Shown piece by piece: positions 5,198 through 47,093 of a stretch of 58,358 nucleotides of DNA. The translations under genes were made by a program, and so were the position numbers. Location: the NCBI GenBank assembly GCA_007376535.1, contig VMGK01000002.1, positions 1 to 58,358 on the forward strand, written 5' to 3'. The notes below the pieces were generated by a model. That model made no database searches, was not told the DNA's origin, and was given only the letters and a program-made list of their open reading frames with translations. The DNA comes from Candidatus Berkelbacteria bacterium Licking1014_7. Its GTDB lineage: Bacteria; Patescibacteriota; UBA1384; GWA2-35-9; CG2-30-39-44. Every line of letters begins with the position of its first letter. The stretch's first letter is position 1.

Positions 5198-5254
5198 TTA
5201 AATAAGAATTAAGAATTAAGAATGAAGAAATTAAATTATAATTAAGAAATTTTT
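5198..5254. repeat. 57-nt AT-rich module D (AATAAGAATTAAGAATTAAGAATGAAGAAATTAAATTATAATTAAGAAATTTTT)
   Basis: Identical to 18298..18354. Both copies abut the start codon of an r-protein gene (rpsN, rpsL). Degenerate copies lie at 18456..18494, about 37110..37170 and about 46690..46750. Confidence 0.9.
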
Positions 5255-7554: not shown

Positions 7555-7628
7555 AATGTAATTTAGTCGCAAAATTCAAACCTCCCCGAAAGCTATCGCA
7601 ACAGGGCAGGATCTAAACTATAACTATT

Positions 7629-7714
7629 GATAAAAATTCCAATTCTCAAGCATCAATGTTCAATGATCCCTTGAGATTTTGATTCATTGGAATTTGTAAA
7701 CGATTAGAGTAATT
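7629..7714 (+). repeat. module E copy 1
   Basis: GATAAAAATTCCAATTCTCAAGCATCAATGTTCAATGA...GGAATTTGTAAACGATT. Near-identical to 26078..26147. Reverse copies lie within 11892..12115 and 40195..40366. Confidence 0.9.
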
Positions 7715-11891: not shown

Positions 11892-12115
11892 AATTACTCT
11901 AATCGTTTACAAATTCCAATGGATCAAAATATAATTTAGAGGAGAGATGCGCGAAGTTCGGCGAAACGATGATTGGCTTTGCAAAATCATTGAACATTGA
12001 GATTTGGAATTTGATTGAACATTGATGCTTGAGAATTGGAATTTTTATCATTGAGCATTGAGAATAATTTTTAACGAAAATCTTAAGTCAAAAAACTTAT
12101 TGCTTTTTGATTTAA
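11892..12115 (-). repeat. module E copy 2 (reverse orientation, with about 50-nt internal insert)
   Basis: Shares AATCGTTTACAAATTCCAATG...ATTGAACATTGATGCTTGAGAATTGGAATTTTTATCATTGAGCATTGAGAATAATTTTTA with 40195..40366. Confidence 0.9.
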
Positions 12116-17089: not shown

Positions 17090-17149
17090 AATCTAATCTC
17101 AAAATGCAAATCTCAAATCTCAAAATTACATCTTAAAACTAAAAACTTT

Positions 17150-18297: not shown

Positions 18298-18354
18298 TTA
18301 AATAAGAATTAAGAATTAAGAATGAAGAAATTAAATTATAATTAAGAAATTTTT
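18298..18354. repeat. module D, identical to 5198..5254
   Basis: 57/57 nt identical by eye. Confidence 0.9.
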
Positions 18355-26032: not shown

Positions 26033-26077
26033 AAAATCACAATGTAAAATGCAGAAGTTTTTTGACTTTTGACTTTT

Positions 26078-26147
26078 GATAAAAATTCCAATTCTCAAGC
26101 ATCAATGTTCAATGATTCCTTGAGATTTTGATTTATTGGAATTTGTA
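26078..26147 (+). repeat. module E copy 3
   Basis: Near-identical to 7629..7700. Confidence 0.9.
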
Positions 26148-30141: not shown

Positions 30142-30276
30142 AGTAAAATAATAGATTTCTTCCGCAACAATTTTTCGTAGCGAAAGTTAAATTAAAATTA
30201 AGAATGAATAAAAGATTCAATCTCAAATCTCAAAATTCAAATCTCCTGCCCGCCATCGCTTCGCTTTGGCGACTTG

Positions 30277-37101: not shown

Positions 37102-37225
37102 AAGACGTCTTTTGTTAAATAAGAAATAAAAATGAAGAATTAAGAATTGAAATAGTAAATCGAAAATTTCTTAATTGCCTGCCCCGTAAAATTGCGAAGT
37201 AATTTATTCGGGGTAATTTAATTTC

Positions 37226-38362
37226 TTAATTATTCATTCTTAATTTTAATTTAATAAAGTCCTTTATTTTCATTCTAAATTGTTCGGGCGTAAATTGCAA
37301 GGCGCGCTCCCGGCATTCTTGAGATGAAAACTTTTTCTTTTCAAAAATCTTTATGGCAGAGATTACATTTTGATAATTTTGCCGGTCAAAAAAAATTCCG
37401 GTTTTTCCTTCAATCACAGTTTCTAACGCCCCGCCTTTTTTATAGGCAATGACTGGCGTGCCCGCGCTCATTGCTTCAAGCGGAGTAATGCCAAAATCCT
37501 CAAGCGCTGGAAAAATATAGGCGCGGGCATTTTGATAAAGTGAAACCAAACGATTGTCTGGCACTCTGTCCAAAAATGAAATATTTTCCGATATGGCTAA
37601 TTTTTCTAAGCGATTTCTGTCTGATCCAGCGCCCGCGATGATCAATTTTTTTTCTGGCATTTGGTTGAATGCCTTGATTGCAATATCATATTTTTTATAT
37701 GGCACTAACCGTCCGCCCATTAAATAGTAGTCCTGTTTTTTGGTCTTAGGCAAAAATAATTCTGTTTCAACTGACGGATAAATTACTATTGACTCCCGTC
37801 CGTAAATACTTTTAATTCGTTTTTGCACTTCGCGCGAATTGGCAATATAAAAATCCGGTCTTTGGCTGGCGCGAAAATCCCATTTCTTGAGATATGGCAA
37901 ATATAAATCTAGCAATGGACGCAAAATTTTCGGCACAGAGGTCTCCAGATAAAAATTTTTATCAATCCAAAGATATCTGGTGGGCGTGTTGCAATAGCAA
38001 ATATGGATTTGGTGGGGATTGCGTTTTTTAACTCCTTTGACTAAAGCGGAAGTGAGCGAAATCACCAAATCATAATTTTTCAAATTCCAATTCTCAATCA
38101 CATTAGGATAAAACGGCAATAATTTTTTATAAATTTTTTTGGAAAATGGCAGTTTTTGCAGCCAGGAAGTTATGATTTTATATTTGCCAAATGTCTGTCC
38201 GCAAACATCGGAATTATAAATTAAAGTATAGATTGTGGCTTGGGGAAAAATTTCTAAAAATTCTTTGAGCACTCGTTCAGCGCCGCCCATTTGCGTCAAA
38301 ATTTCGTGGACAATCGCCACGCGCAAATGATCAAACGAGTTGTTTGCTTTTTTGTTTAACAT
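37226..38362 (-). CDS. glycosyltransferase, GT4/group 1 family
   Basis: C-terminal EDFGITPLEAMSAGTPVIA (E-x7-E region), 378 aa. Confidence 0.85.
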   Translation of the reverse strand: MLNKKANNSFDHLRVAIVHEILTQMGGAERVLKEFLEIFPQATIYTLIYNSDVCGQTFGKYKIITSWLQKLPFSKKIYKKLLPFYPNVIENWNLKNYDLVISLTSALVKGVKKRNPHQIHICYCNTPTRYLWIDKNFYLETSVPKILRPLLDLYLPYLKKWDFRASQRPDFYIANSREVQKRIKSIYGRESIVIYPSVETELFLPKTKKQDYYLMGGRLVPYKKYDIAIKAFNQMPEKKLIIAGAGSDRNRLEKLAISENISFLDRVPDNRLVSLYQNARAYIFPALEDFGITPLEAMSAGTPVIAYKKGGALETVIEGKTGIFFDRQNYQNVISAIKIFEKKKFSSQECRERALQFTPEQFRMKIKDFIKLKLRMNN

Positions 38363-38368
38363 ATTAAG

Positions 38369-38397
38369 ATTATAGCAAATTTCCCATCAAATATCAA
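38369..38397 (-). promoter_or_regulatory. TTGATA-N17-TATAAT promoter with the -10 box 6 nt from the ATG (leaderless architecture)
   Basis: The reverse complement reads TTGATA tttgatgggaaatttgc TATAAT cttaat ATG. Confidence 0.5.
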
Positions 38398-38445
38398 CCC
38401 AAAGCTCCGCCGATATGGATCGGCGGATAAAATTTTTCTTAGCTC

Positions 38446-38467
38446 AAAAAAAGCCCCGAAGGGCTTT
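38446..38467 (-). terminator. rho-independent terminator AAAGCCC-ttcg-GGGCTTT-TTTT
   Basis: UUCG-loop hairpin plus T-run about 40 nt after the stop at 38509. A second perfect 9-bp hairpin lies at 38406..38427. Confidence 0.75.
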
Positions 38468-38508
38468 ACAAAGTTGAATGTGTTAAACGCAAATTGGGCT
38501 TAATTGGA

Positions 38509-38736
38509 TTATCTCGATGTTTCGATTACCATTAACCATCTTTTTGTAGGAGGATAATAATATACAGATATCTGGTTTTGGCAATTGGGACAGACAATTT
38601 CTTTTCCGGCGCATACATCACTTGAAATGCCTACCGTGCATGCTTTTTCATCAACCATAGTAGATAATTCGTATCCACATTCAGGTCTCGGGCAAAAAGG
38701 ATGCTCCCCGCTACTTCTTTGGTATTTGCCACTCAT
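38509..38736 (-). CDS. orphan 75-aa Cys-rich zinc-ribbon protein (paralogous to the N-terminal half of the 159-aa protein)
   Basis: ATG at 38736 is preceded by GGAGGTG. Contains FCPRPEC...C...C...CPNC. The track start at 38742 is a TTG. Confidence 0.65.
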   Translation of the reverse strand: MSGKYQRSSGEHPFCPRPECGYELSTMVDEKACTVGISSDVCAGKEIVCPNCQNQISVYYYPPTKRWLMVIETSR

Positions 38737-38738
38737 AG

Positions 38739-38846
38739 TCAAGCCACCTCCTGCCTTTCAGCGAGTTCTGCCTTTGCCTGATCATACATTTCTTTAATTT
38801 CTAAGTAAGAGTATTGTCCAATTCTGTCAATCCATTTGTTTTCCAT
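38739..38846 (-). CDS. 35-aa helical micro-ORF MENKWIDRIGQYSYLEIKEMYDQAKAELAERQEVA
   Basis: Below the track size cut-off. Preceded by the same 20-nt AAAAGGGAGGTACCTTGACA leader as the 159-aa gene. Its stop TGA is 2 nt from the next ATG. Confidence 0.45.
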   Translation of the reverse strand: MENKWIDRIGQYSYLEIKEMYDQAKAELAERQEVA

Positions 38847-38984
38847 TGTCAAGGTACCTCCCTTTTGGTTTTCATTTTCATCCATGCATCATTTCGCGAT
38901 TTTTCTGCTTTGTTCGTAAGCAGATTAGCGAGTTTGTTATTGTCATTCGTGATTGCTCGTGATTTCAATGCGATTGTTCGCGGT

Positions 38985-39563
38985 TCATTGGGCGGGCACA
39001 AACTCAAACGGAATTACAATTCTTGCCTTCCACGGCAATTTCAAGTATCCATACTCATGGACTAAATCCGAATTCTCTTCCGTTAATCGGTCAAAAATCT
39101 TGAGAATTGAAACCTTGGGCTTCACCTTTCCCTGAATTTCCTCCGCAATTCTCCATAAAGACCACCCCTCGGACAGTTCCATGAAATTAACCTTCTCTTT
39201 TTCATCCCAACCAATCAAGACACTGCCCACCTGAATGGGCATCTCTTCTTCCTCTTTTATCTTGGCTACTTTCTTTTCTGTCTTCTCTACTGCTGAAACT
39301 ATTTTCTCTATTAGTAAAACATTCTTTTCTTGATTCCTGGTCAATTGCTCAATTATAGAAGTATTTTCCCGAACTCTCTGGCTGATAGCCGAATTAAATC
39401 CGAGCAAATAAGAGAATGCTGCAAACACTAGAAGTACCCATATCCGCCAAAACCGCCAAAACCAAGAAGTGACAATCGTATCATTTTTTTCTCTCAAACC
39501 ACTCACCTCCTCGGGATTCGCTTCATTAAAATGGTATTTTGGCGCAAAGAGGTTTGAAATCAT
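38985..39563 (-). CDS. orphan membrane protein with a Trp/Arg-rich juxtamembrane segment, one TM helix, a coiled-coil and a LysM-like C-terminus (tentative)
   Basis: WFWRFWRIWVLLVFAAFSYLLGF TM helix. The C-terminal FMELSEGWSLWRIAEEI...KARIVIP resembles the LysM beta-alpha-alpha-beta pattern. An alternative TTG start at 39497 has GGAGG 8 nt upstream. Confidence 0.65.
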   Translation of the reverse strand: MISNLFAPKYHFNEANPEEVSGLREKNDTIVTSWFWRFWRIWVLLVFAAFSYLLGFNSAISQRVRENTSIIEQLTRNQEKNVLLIEKIVSAVEKTEKKVAKIKEEEEMPIQVGSVLIGWDEKEKVNFMELSEGWSLWRIAEEIQGKVKPKVSILKIFDRLTEENSDLVHEYGYLKLPWKARIVIPFEFVPAQ

Positions 39564-40005
39564 TGGGCAGCAGTTCTGGATTAACGCCTTTTTTCAGAAA
39601 ATGCGGTTGGTCGCAGTGGTCGCATTGCTTGACAACCCCTTTTGGATACGCGGCTTTTGAAACTTGTTTGCTGTTGGTATATTTGCCGCAATGGCAGCAC
39701 TTCCAGGAAAAACCGATTTTCTGTCCATTAAAATCTTCCGAATCAAAAGAGACGGTAACAGATAATTGCCATGGGTGGATAGCACCAGGAGCATAAACCA
39801 TATCTATCATTCTTTTGCATCGGGGACATCTTTTTCGCCCCTGTCTTAGAGTTTTGCTAACAAAATGGTGTGTAACACCACTTTGTTCAAGATAAGTTGA
39901 TAAATCAGCCGCGCAAATCATCTTTCCGTCTACAGCCGGACAAAGAGGTATTCTGCCGCAAAATCTTGTAGTAAGAGTAATTCTTCTTTCTGCTTTTTTT
40001 CTCAT
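39526..40005 (-). CDS. orphan 159-aa double zinc-ribbon protein
   Basis: ATG at 40005 follows GGGAGG. Contains FCGRIPLC, CPRC, CCHC and CDHC. The track start at 40011 is a TTG. Confidence 0.7.
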   Translation of the reverse strand: MRKKAERRITLTTRFCGRIPLCPAVDGKMICAADLSTYLEQSGVTHHFVSKTLRQGRKRCPRCKRMIDMVYAPGAIHPWQLSVTVSFDSEDFNGQKIGFSWKCCHCGKYTNSKQVSKAAYPKGVVKQCDHCDQPHFLKKGVNPELLPNDFKPLCAKIPF

Positions 40006-40033
40006 TGTCAAGGTACCTCCCTTTTAGATAACT

Positions 40034-40064
40034 ATTATATATCAAATTTATAACTGCAAGTCAA
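40034..40064 (-). promoter_or_regulatory. promoter TTGACT-N17/19-TATATAAT for the orphan operon
   Basis: The reverse complement reads TTGACT tgcagttataaatttga TATATAAT. Confidence 0.45.
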
Positions 40065-40083
40065 GTCCAACCAACAAACCCCC

Positions 40084-40117
40084 TACGAAATTACGAAATT
40101 TTTACGAAAATACGAAA
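40084..40117. promoter_or_regulatory. four direct TACGAAA repeats (spacing 8, 11, 8 nt) just upstream of the operon -35
   Basis: TACGAAA at 40084, 40092, 40103 and 40111. Confidence 0.6.
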
Positions 40118-40194
40118 ACACATATTCATTAATATTATCTCAAGTCGCAAAACATTAAAAATATTACAGAATATAGAATAATCCTAATTAGCCA

Positions 40195-40366
40195 AATCGT
40201 TTACAAATTCCAATGAATCAAAATCTCAAGGAATCATTGAACATTGAAATTTGGAATTTGATTGAACATTGATGTTTGAGAATTGGAATTTTTATCATTG
40301 AGCATTGAGAATAATTTTTATCATAAATCTTAAGTCAAAAAACTTTTTACTTTTTGATTTTTGATT
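40195..40366 (-). repeat. module E copy 4 (reverse orientation, with 25-nt internal duplication)
   Basis: Aligns to the reverse complement of 7629..7714 and to 11892..12115. Confidence 0.9.
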
Positions 40367-40370
40367 TAAT

Positions 40371-41720
40371 TTAATATGCTCCTCTTCCTTTCAAAACCAC
40401 CCCAATCGTCTTGATTAAAATAATCAGATCAAGCCACAGCGACCAGTTTTCAATATAATAAACATCCAAGCGCACCCATTCGTCAAAGTCCAAATCCGAT
40501 CTGCCAGAAACCTGCCAGAGTCCGGTGATGCCCGGCTTTATACCCAATCGTCTTTTATGCCAAGCGCTATAATGCTTAACTTCTTCGGACATGGGCGGGC
40601 GCGGACCAATCAGCGACATCTCGCCCCGCAAAACATTAAAAAATTGAGGCAGTTCGTCAAGCGAGTATTTGCGCAAAAATTTACCAAATCCAAAAACCCG
40701 CGGATCGTCTTTCAACTTAAACATATTACCGTATTTTTTAATATATTCTGTATGCAATTTATGAGCGTCGGGAACCATCGTGCGAAATTTCAAAAACCAA
40801 AATTCTTCACCCAATCCAACTCTTTTTTGTCGGAAAAAAATCGGACCGTTAGGCGAAGAAATTTTTATTCCCAAAGCGCAAAAAATAAAAACTGGCGACA
40901 ATATCAAAATTAAAATTAAACCAGCCACAATATCAAAAATTCTTTTATAAATCGCGCCCCAGCCGAACAGCGGCGTGCGTTGATATTCAATAATCGGTAT
41001 GCCAGCCAAAAGCGTAAGATCTATTTTTGACGACTGGACTTTGAAAAGATTGGGAATTACCTTAAATCCAATCCCCTTTTCCTGACAATATTCCAAAAGA
41101 TTTGAAATTTGTTTTTCGCTTGCCAAAGTATCTGCCACAATCACTTCATCAATCCCTTCGCCCAAAACCGATAAATTTTTAGTAAAAATATTATGATCCA
41201 GAATTTTTACGATTTTATACCCCCAACTTTTATCATTTTTCAAACTGTTAATTACGGTTTTAGCCAAACCGTGATTGCCGATTATTGCCACCCGAATAAT
41301 TCCAACATCAAATTTATACAAATAGTGCTGTAAAAAATTTAAAATAACCCGATAAATCGAGACAAATAAAATCGAAAATCCCAGCGCGTAAAAAATCACC
41401 AAGCGGGAAAAGAAGTCGGTTCTTGATAAAAATATATATGAAATAGCCAGAAGTGTTGAAGCAAAAGAACCAATCACTACTCGCGAGAGTTCCTCAAATC
41501 CCCGTCCTTTTTCTTGGGGAATATAAAGTTTTAGAAAAACAAAAATAATTACCCACAAAAAAGCGATACCAAGAGTAAATCTCAAATATTCGTTAAAACC
41601 CCAAACATAATCATATTCAAAATAGGTTCGGATAAAATAAGCCAGCAAAAATGCCGCTGAGACAAAAATATAATCCAGTGGAACTTTTACCGCGCTAAAA
41701 ATTATCTTTGATCTTTTCAT
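40371..41720 (-). CDS. polyprenyl-phosphate sugar phosphotransferase (WbaP/bacterial sugar transferase family)
   Basis: N-terminal TM helices and a C-terminal catalytic domain (PRPPMSEEV..., GITGLWQVSGRSDL, YIENWSLWLDL). Confidence 0.9.
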   Translation of the reverse strand: MKRSKIIFSAVKVPLDYIFVSAAFLLAYFIRTYFEYDYVWGFNEYLRFTLGIAFLWVIIFVFLKLYIPQEKGRGFEELSRVVIGSFASTLLAISYIFLSRTDFFSRLVIFYALGFSILFVSIYRVILNFLQHYLYKFDVGIIRVAIIGNHGLAKTVINSLKNDKSWGYKIVKILDHNIFTKNLSVLGEGIDEVIVADTLASEKQISNLLEYCQEKGIGFKVIPNLFKVQSSKIDLTLLAGIPIIEYQRTPLFGWGAIYKRIFDIVAGLILILILSPVFIFCALGIKISSPNGPIFFRQKRVGLGEEFWFLKFRTMVPDAHKLHTEYIKKYGNMFKLKDDPRVFGFGKFLRKYSLDELPQFFNVLRGEMSLIGPRPPMSEEVKHYSAWHKRRLGIKPGITGLWQVSGRSDLDFDEWVRLDVYYIENWSLWLDLIILIKTIGVVLKGRGAY

Positions 41721-41901: not shown

Positions 41902-42126
41902 CTATCTTTCTTTTTCTTTTTCTTTTATTTTTCTTGCCATAGGTAGGCCAGTTCTTTCATTTTCCATTAATTCATAGCCCGCCGGAAGTTCATCAAGCGC
42001 GTCAGCCGGTCTTACATCGCGCGCAAAAAAATAAATTCTTTGTAGGCGACCTCCACGCAGGGTTACCTCTTTGCTATGAAGATAATATGTATCGCCTGTC
42101 TTTTTGGACTTGACTGAATATGCCAT
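41902..42126 (-). CDS. orphan 74-aa basic protein (TYYLHSKEVTLRGGRLQRIYFFA...LPAGYELMENERTGLP)
   Basis: ATG with GGAGGTGAT SD, plus its own promoter-like sequence and terminator. No family name recalled. Confidence 0.65.
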   Translation of the reverse strand: MAYSVKSKKTGDTYYLHSKEVTLRGGRLQRIYFFARDVRPADALDELPAGYELMENERTGLPMARKIKEKEKER

Positions 42127-46895: not shown

Positions 46896-47093
46896 TCTTT
46901 TGCAAACCCGCCGTCGTTCAATCTCTTTGAGAAGTAGATGATTATTTCTTTTCTCAAATTAGATTTCACTTTGGCGGGCGCGGTAGATTTCATTTTGGCG
47001 GGCAGGCATTTTGAGATTTGAATTTTGAGATTTGAGATTGAATCTTTTATTCATTCTTAATTTTAATTTAATAAAGAATGCCAGTCGGATTCT

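Follow-up and report, generated by a model that had tools for sequence, protein, structure and literature searches.

A cassette of four small genes, encoded on the minus strand with a promoter and terminators of its own, occupies 38363-40194 in a 58,358-nt stretch of DNA (hereafter the window) from Candidatus Berkelbacteria bacterium Licking1014_7 (GenBank assembly GCA_007376535.1, contig VMGK01000002.1, positions 1 to 58,358 of the forward strand). We read this cassette as a lineage-specific, most probably horizontally acquired and autonomous transcription unit of ~1.8 kb in the core chromosome of a Berkelbacteria-like member of the Candidate Phyla Radiation (CPR), with a moron-like layout, and put the probability of that reading at roughly 55%. 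An earlier, sequence-only reading of the same DNA had taken the cassette for a self-contained orphan operon, and at the level of sequence our analysis supports this.

A lineage-specific insertion between two envelope genes

In the window, 2,008 nt lie between a WbaP-type sugar transferase gene (40371-41720; Bac_transf 228 bits) and a GT4 glycosyltransferase gene (37226-38362), both on the minus strand. Scanning metagenomes with WbaP yielded 80 loci, and all fetched loci together gave 58 related ones where GT4 comes next after WbaP in the same orientation, with a gap of ≤200 nt in 54 of these 58. The nearest GTDB genome, a Candidatus Berkelbacteria metagenome-assembled genome (L001) with a GT4 54% and a WbaP 70% identical to those of the window, has the order orf74, WbaP, GT4, Wzz-like, DUF4012 and a WbaP-GT4 gap of only 27 nt. 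Hence, comparison of this junction with relatives upheld the idea of an insertion, and on these alignments the cassette is a lineage-specific one. Its genes did not recur in relatives, as none of the 91 fetched loci encodes a cassette protein (tblastn). The cassette had also been described as interrupting a Wzz/DUF4012/GT4/WbaP envelope cluster, which held for three of the flanking families by profile (Bac_transf/WbaP-like, GT4, and DUF4012) and not for the Wzz label, which stayed below threshold (18.8 bits vs a cutoff of 25.5).

On its upstream side, the cassette abuts DNA of the kind that fills intergenic regions elsewhere in this genome:

40195-40360, unstranded: host-type intergenic repeat modules (boundary), the first 166 nt past the WbaP stop region

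Within this segment, a 129-nt stretch has 94.6% identity to 11985-12113, a 53-nt stretch has 98% identity, inverted, to 7653-7705, and a 46-nt stretch has 97.8% identity, inverted, to 26102-26147. By these matches, the segment is the border of native intergenic DNA against unique cassette DNA, which runs from 40194 down to ~38400 with the cassette's own internal 23-nt repeat as the sole exception. The limit at 40194 agrees with the bounds drawn earlier, and the claim that the cassette's non-coding DNA is free of the genome's intergenic repeat modules was borne out, with none found inside the unique DNA.

The four loci with longer gaps hold unrelated cargo at the same junction, i.e., an IS200-like Y1 transposase in two of them (L018, 2207-2893; L021, 7442-8122), a SpoU-type RNA methyltransferase gene in another (L069, 7443-8246), and a gene for a Phage_holin_4_2 family membrane protein (99 bits) in the last (L083, 7473-7817), so the WbaP/GT4 junction is a permissive site with a record of repeated insertions. 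What probably makes it permissive is a -10 element belonging to GT4 itself, right before the ATG both in the window and in L001, so that a terminator-bearing insert would not silence GT4.

Genes and expression signals of the cassette

Reading along the minus strand, the features of the cassette and its downstream edge are as follows (SD, Shine-Dalgarno; ORF, open reading frame):

40084-40117, minus strand: four TTTCGTA direct repeats, as two TTTCGTAnTTTCGTA 15-mers 19 nt apart
40034-40064, minus strand: sigma-70-like promoter, TTGACT (40064-40059), a 17-nt spacer, and TATATAAT (40041-40034)
40003-40025, minus strand: translation-initiation module copy 1, AAAAGGGAGGTACCTTGACAATG, with the SD and start of the 159-aa gene
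39526-40005, minus strand: ZnR159, 159 aa, containing FCGRIPLC, CPRC, CCHC, and CDHC
38985-39497, minus strand: TM170, 170 aa, from an SD-led TTG at 39497
38985-39563, minus strand: 192-aa form of TM170, from an upstream ATG at 39563 that overlaps ZnR159
38844-38866, minus strand: translation-initiation module copy 2, the same 23 nt as copy 1, with the SD and start of the micro-ORF
38739-38846, minus strand: micro-ORF, 35 aa, from an SD-led ATG at 38846; acidic, and helical as predicted by eye
38509-38736, minus strand: ZnR75, 75 aa, with a single zinc ribbon (C15, C20, C49, C52)
38446-38467, minus strand: intrinsic terminator, AAAGCCC-UUCG-GGGCUUU and then a U run
38406-38427, unstranded: second hairpin, 9 bp with 6 GC pairs, UCCGCCGAU-CCAU-AUCGGCGGA, with a T-rich run after it on the plus strand
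38369-38397, minus strand: the GT4 gene's own promoter, TTGATA-17-TATAAT with TG, 11/12 matches

Much of this had been noticed in the sequence-only reading, and the four minus-strand ORFs including the 35-aa micro-ORF, the promoter TTGACT-N17-TATATAAT, the four upstream direct repeats at 40084-40117 (given there as TACGAAA, which is TTTCGTA on the other strand), and the UUCG-loop terminator with its second hairpin (38446-38467 and 38406-38427) are all present as it had them. The same is true of the identical 23-nt initiation region shared by the 159-aa gene and the micro-ORF, and of the 2 nt between the micro-ORF stop and the next ATG.

The four ORFs fill ~89% of the 1.5 kb from first start to last stop, each has a GGAGG at a workable distance ahead of its start, and a codon score trained on the host ranks the annotated frame best of six for all four; we take them as probable genes on this basis, to which the confidently modelled helix of the membrane protein and the Cys ligands kept between the two zinc-ribbon paralogues add. 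For TM170, the TTG start at 39497 is preceded by a 28-nt spacer with GGAGG that separates it from ZnR159. The micro-ORF follows the membrane-protein gene after a 138-nt spacer in which RNA structure was not significant (z=-1.2), and it has a longer alternative of 48 aa, from an ATG at 38885, which is the form called in the European Nucleotide Archive (ENA) assembly. Its stop (38739-38741) lies just ahead of the ZnR75 ATG (38736), and this spacing together with the shared initiation region makes translational coupling or co-regulation a candidate mechanism. No Rfam family was found in 37900-40700.

The promoter was read directly from the sequence; it was absent from the list of a consensus scanner because its -10 hexamer, TATATA, ends in A. 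A TG stands 1 nt upstream of this hexamer, and the element predicts a leader of ~20-25 nt ending in AAAAGGGAGGTACCTTGACAATG. Further upstream, 20-53 nt before the -35 hexamer, the TTTCGTA array is a candidate regulator-binding or UP-like element, its heptamer having only 16 copies in the whole 58-kb window with both strands counted.

These signals set the cassette apart from its host. GGAGG occurs within 20 nt of the start in 4/4 cassette ORFs vs 4/53 host genes (Fisher p=1.8e-4), and of the ten GGAGGT on the minus strand of the window four stand ahead of cassette ORFs. Guanine-cytosine (GC) content is 0.39-0.415 in the four ORFs vs 0.375 in host genes, and codon log-likelihood per codon is 0.06 for ZnR159, 0.14 for TM170, 0.29 for the micro-ORF, and -0.09 for ZnR75, compared with 0.365 +/- 0.11 (minimum 0.096) for host genes. 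By composition and initiation signals, the cassette looks foreign.

An origin in place and with no horizontal transfer, the cassette having emerged de novo in the WbaP-GT4 spacer of this lineage or having duplicated and diverged locally there, would explain the internal duplications (two zinc ribbons and three initiation-module copies), the missing mobility genes and target-site duplications, and the failure of every search to find a donor, and short tandem repeat arrays upstream of promoters are habitual in this genome. We nevertheless consider it improbable: a spacer of ≤200 nt in 54 of 58 relatives' loci offers little raw material, SD usage, GC, and codon usage are all unlike the host, and the folded features (four-Cys ribbons, a zf-DNL match at E=9e-6, and a transmembrane (TM) helix with a coiled coil) argue for an older protein history.

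A triplicated initiation module

The 23-nt repeat is exact at both sites, where the number of matches expected by chance is 0, and extends to 32 nt at 91% identity. Copy 2 consists of the last 20 nt of the 138-nt spacer plus the ATG at 38846-38844. Alignment of the four initiation regions further identified that of ZnR75, AGGAGGTGGCTTGACTATG, as a diverged third copy of the module, and in this diverged copy (AGGAGGTGGCTTGACTATGAG) the likeness to the ZnR159 region carries on into the first codons. Because the likeness of ZnR75 spans both gene and initiation region, the two were probably duplicated together long ago, the proteins being now 28% identical. The perfect copy before the unrelated micro-ORF must then be either a later copy or one held by constraint, and co-regulation of genes 1 and 3 through the 23-nt element would be an attractive inference from this arrangement.

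Four products without recognizable families

None of the four products had an above-threshold match in Pfam, PHROGs, PADLOC, or NCBIfam. When 5.8 billion clusters were searched by word index, the 159-aa protein matched only itself, as did the 192-aa protein, and a profile of both zinc-ribbon paralogues run against the same clusters recovered only the 159-aa protein itself. Exhaustive HMMER comparison of the 192-aa protein with 1.84 billion representatives gave no accepted homologue. A PDB sequence search returned Tim15 at E=0.19 and otherwise noise, Foldseek against the PDB gave nothing at E≤0.001, tblastn against GenBank phages and PLSDB plasmids found nothing, and neither did scans of IMG/VR with three of the proteins and with the 23-nt element; no paralogue of the cassette was found elsewhere in the window. 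The earlier statement that no described family or system matches this architecture is thus supported by library, cluster, phage, and plasmid searches, and the profile and structure checks placed no product in a characterised family.

Two apparent leads were discarded. The sole match to an anti-phage defence component in PADLOC-DB 2.0, DruE at E=0.061, is spurious. The only non-self match of the exhaustive HMMER search, a 799-aa protein (P0003, E=1.9e-8), is eukaryote-like and made of eight near-identical SET-domain repeats, and its E-value is inflated because six weak repeat matches (DYGVKNLPWREKK against EYGYLKLPWKARI) were summed; it serves as a caution on repeat-inflated E-values.

A predicted pair of zinc-ribbon proteins

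ZnR159 is basic (isoelectric point 9.5), is predicted to hold two zinc ribbons, and is probably cytoplasmic. Its N-terminal ribbon, with ligands C22, C31, C60, and C63, is paralogous to ZnR75. Over 60 aa, ZnR75 and the N-half of ZnR159 are 28% identical (BLASTP E=2e-6 in a single comparison), and their Smith-Waterman score of 69 compares with 27 +/- 4.9 for shuffled sequences, none of 5000 shuffles reaching 69, also with Cys positions fixed. Both proteins keep the four Cys ligands together with P-x-C-P, L-S-T, C-P-x-C, and Y-x-P. The paralogy first proposed by eye is hence statistically supported, and what has to be redrawn is the pairing of FCGRIPLC with FCPRPEC, since the best-scoring alignment matches PLCP to PFCP.

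The C-terminal ribbon of ZnR159 (CxxC...CxxC, residues 100-137) came close to a known family. The zf-DNL profile (PF05180) scored 23.1 bits on the full protein and 26.0 bits (E=9.1e-6) on the isolated C-half, neither reaching the gathering threshold of 27 bits. Aligned to Tim15 (PDB 2e2z), the C-half shares F.C..C...SK.AY.KG.V..C.HC...H, and the four Cys in two knuckles expected of zf-DNL are found in ZnR159 as C103/C104-x-C106 and C128-xx-C131. The D-N-L motif after the second knuckle is missing; ZnR159 reads CDHCDQPHFLKKGV there, compared with CPHCKVRHLI and then the DNL region in Tim15, at what we take to be the position of that motif.

A predicted stalked membrane protein

The 192-aa form contains WFWRFWRIW and one hydrophobic segment (KD19 1.8), in line with the single-pass membrane protein described in the sequence-only reading. 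From an N-terminus that is short and rich in Trp and Arg, TM170 is predicted to run through a single TM helix and a coiled-coil stalk of ~45 residues to a C-domain of ~80 residues whose fold is unassigned. An AlphaFold2 model built without an alignment has a continuous helix over residues 17-106, with a predicted local distance difference test (pLDDT) score >90 over ~30-90, i.e., the TM helix and stalk. The segment is flanked by a net charge of +2 on its N side and 0 on its C side, which points to an N-in/C-out single-pass protein with the ~80-aa domain predicted to lie outside the cell. A holin assignment (phrog_1350, E=0.0066) was rejected, as the match covers only the TM and coiled-coil parts and there is no lysin gene in the cassette or window.

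The C-terminus had earlier been called LysM-like, and this found no support. No Pfam family, LysM (PF01476) included, was found at E≤10 for residues 112-192 alone or at E≤1 for the full protein, the PDB sequence search returned no LysM chain, and no LysM-like ORF was found in the fetched loci. The only hit was NCBIfam YneA (NF010723) on the segment ELSEGWSLWRIAEEI, with 13 bits and E=0.074 over residues 120-147, compared with a curated cutoff of 60 bits. The low-confidence model of this domain, with a strand/helix order compatible with beta-alpha-alpha-beta, has pLDDT <50 from residue 106 on.

Small division inhibitors of the SOS type are fast-evolving and often orphan-looking. Such orphan character, the single N-terminal TM helix, the small extracytoplasmic domain, and ELSEGWSLWRIAEEI as the only family hint (13 bits, E=0.074) would all suit a stress-induced module that inhibits cell division in the manner of YneA/ChiZ, in which a peptidoglycan-binding LysM-like domain blocks septal wall synthesis and the zinc-ribbon proteins regulate it. 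We know of no coiled-coil stalk of ~45 residues in YneA-type proteins. YneA itself joins a single TM domain to a LysM domain (PMC13396833), an arrangement that TM170 shares as far as its predicted topology goes, with one N-terminal TM helix and an extracellular C-terminal domain. Against a YneA-type module stand this stalk of TM170, the score of 13 bits vs the cutoff of 60, the negative LysM searches in Pfam (E≤10) and the PDB, the pLDDT below 50, and the promoter, where direct repeats are present and no palindromic LexA-type box was seen. On balance, we give a YneA-type module little credence.

CPR bacteria are believed to rely on surface contact with their hosts, and TM170 could instead be a surface accessory of the envelope-polysaccharide locus, displaying a carbohydrate- or host-binding domain together with WbaP, GT4, the Wzz-like protein, and DUF4012, so that the insertion site itself would be functional. 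The place of the cassette inside an envelope cluster and the predicted C-out topology with a stalk are consistent with this. Its own promoter and strong terminators insulate the cassette transcriptionally from the cluster, however, and it is absent from all 58 related clusters; that the junction elsewhere holds a transposase, a SpoU methylase, or a holin-family protein points to a permissive site rather than a functional link. A role in the envelope locus is for these reasons very unlikely.

Weighing the reading

Several observations count against an acquired, autonomous, functional unit. The cassette is known from one population only, represented by two assemblies (the second being ENA ERZ27284379 k139_681969) that are 100% identical across it, with no variation. 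No mobility gene, att-like repeat, or phage gene was found near it; the 58-kb window contains no integrase, transposase, or phage genes, its remainder being core housekeeping genes (gyrA/B, fmt/def, priA, lepB, infC, rplT), and we saw no marks of an insertion sequence (IS) or a miniature inverted-repeat transposable element (MITE), i.e., no inverted or direct repeats pairing the cassette ends, no target-site duplication, and no transposase. With the cassette in a core chromosome and 58 kb free of phage genes, the term "moron" serves only as an analogy. The difference in GC is small, and ZnR75 went uncalled by the gene caller in the ENA assembly. The structural models add nothing where they would matter, both the C-domain of TM170 (pLDDT <50 from residue 106 on) and ZnR159 (single-sequence AlphaFold2 model, pLDDT 38.6) being unusable, and PADLOC and PHROGs gave nothing significant and so no direct support for a conflict role.

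Islets of ORFans that occur just once are a common sight in CPR metagenome assemblies. The cassette might be what is left of a mobile element or phage, decaying and without function, in which some or all ORFs are without selection and ZnR75 and the micro-ORF are perhaps untranslated. Its single occurrence without homologues, the low codon scores of ZnR159 (0.06) and ZnR75 (-0.09), the missed ZnR75 call, and the uptake of an IS200-like Y1 transposase and a phage-holin-family gene by the same junction in other lineages would fit such a remnant. Decay is harder to square with four intact, tightly packed ORFs (~89% coding), each SD-led, with an intact promoter and terminator, or with Cys ligands kept between diverged paralogues; further, the 23-nt module is perfect even though the older paralogous copy has diverged, which argues for recent activity or constraint. 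We regard a remnant as unlikely and retain the autonomous transcription unit as the better reading, noting that, as far as the loci compared here go, a single occurrence does not show the cassette to be a recurrent "system".

Possible mode of action and significance

In our reading, the cassette grew by internal duplication of a unit made of initiation region and zinc-ribbon gene, and the initiation region was copied once more, ahead of the micro-ORF. Its predicted products are a basic two-ribbon cytoplasmic protein, a C-out stalked membrane protein, a 35-aa acidic helical peptide, and a single-ribbon paralogue. How such a unit would act is a more tentative matter, and an accessory conflict or envelope module is possible, if doubtful. 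In such a module, the membrane protein could serve as a surface effector or sensor, and the zinc-ribbon proteins could act in the cytoplasm as regulators that bind nucleic acids or proteins; the shared initiation region is a possible target, through which they would balance translation of the first and third genes. A bolder version, which we think decidedly unlikely, would make the cassette a new CPR module of conflict or cell-envelope control, in which a stalked membrane effector is governed by a paralogous zinc-ribbon pair that reads the duplicated 23-nt initiation element (Com-like translational control), one ribbon being a bacterial offshoot of the otherwise organellar DNL/Hep1 fold.

If functional, the cassette would add four protein families without relatives among billions of sequences, and would illustrate how a reduced CPR genome can take up accessory genes at a permissive junction where the adjoining genes keep their own, probably leaderless, promoters. 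It brings foreign-style, SD-led expression signals into a host that rarely uses SD sites, and its identical initiation element ahead of two unrelated ORFs may offer a small example of translational co-regulation. Seen only once and without assignable function, the cassette has no present bearing on any larger open question. The points to retain are how its expression signals contrast with those of the host, its initiation module in three copies, the DNL-type ribbon just short of threshold, and the recurrent WbaP/GT4 landing site.

Neighbouring genes and intergenic repeats

The -10 element of the GT4 promoter ends 6 nt before the GT4 ATG, a layout also found in the relative L001, and the GT4 mRNA is probably leaderless because of this spacing. 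The element ahead of the ATG reads TGnTATAAT in the window (38362-38397) and TGnTAAAAT in L001 (4578-4602), with no SD site, which suggests that a leaderless GT4 mRNA is conserved between the two. More broadly, 16/53 host genes have a -10-like hexamer 4-9 nt ahead of their start vs ~9/53 expected by chance in AT-rich DNA, a mild enrichment. The GT4 protein (37226-38362, minus strand) also scores above the cutoff of PF20706, "GT4 in conflict systems" (28.4 bits vs 26); a conflict role is unlikely for it because it occupies a strictly conserved position beside gyrB, within a core envelope locus.

Upstream of WbaP, a 74-aa ORF (window 41902-42126, minus strand) has a strong GGAGGT site and no Pfam family, and recurs upstream of WbaP in 19 related loci with 65-78% identity, as a conserved small CPR protein. 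At window 42509/42510, by comparison with L092 318-496, the ENA assembly (ERZ27284379 k139_681969) has 179 nt extra. With these 179 nt, fmt ends normally and a hairpin-type module comes next; without them, as in the window, the fmt ORF reads on into an ATTGAAA-type repeat array, with the tail ...FSIYNSQFTLNLQCFNVTNRNV. The difference is either a strain-level indel or a repeat-caused assembly collapse.

Intergenic regions of the genome are packed with common repeat modules, e.g., a 129-nt block at two sites (94.6%) and 37-53-nt blocks in both orientations, with module sites at 40195-40360, 11985-12113, 7628-7705, and 26055-26147. Tandem heptamers (TAAGAAT, AATCTCA, TTTGAGA, ATTGAAA) also occur in intergenic DNA, in arrays at many sites such as 5203-5248, 17095-17124, 18303-18348, 30219-30245, 37120-37148, and 47008-47039. 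The modules have the look of repetitive extragenic palindromic (REP) or MITE elements, and a Y1 transposase like those of IS200 and REP-associated tyrosine transposases (RAYT) lies at the WbaP/GT4 junction of two related lineages.

Comparison with known systems

The zf-DNL family (Tim15/Zim17/Hep1, PF05180) consists mainly of mitochondrial or plastid Hsp70-escort proteins. ZnR159 resembles it in the two CxxC knuckles of its C-half (26.0 bits) and differs in falling short of the 27-bit threshold, in having D-N-L replaced by K-K-G (HFLKKGV), and in giving no sign of an Hsp70 link. Phage Mu Com is a zinc-finger protein that activates translation and binds the initiation region of mom, and the cassette is conceptually similar in placing a small basic zinc-finger protein beside a conserved initiation sequence, with a knuckle, RCPRCKR, that resembles Com's. 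The spacing of the Cys ligands differs and the PHROG gpCom match (E=0.16) is not significant, so that Com is a lead, not a finding.

With YneA (PMC13396833), TM170 shares the single pass, the predicted small extracytoplasmic C-domain, and a weak local likeness around GWSLWRIAEEI. It departs from YneA in its size of 170-192 aa, its long coiled-coil stalk, and its direct-repeat upstream elements, and has no LysM profile match.

The closest parallel in layout is to phage morons, which are defined as extra DNA relative to related genomes, with their own promoter and terminator and a deviating GC content (PMC3594210), as in gene 15 of HK97. The cassette has four genes, compared with the one or two usual in morons. 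Like morons, it consists of small accessory genes, of unassigned or host-modifying function, set between genes that are adjacent in relatives (≤200 nt apart in 54/58 loci), appears to have its own promoter and terminator, and differs from its neighbours in composition, as seen in its GC, its codon scores, and GGAGG sites at 4/4 vs 4/53 starts.

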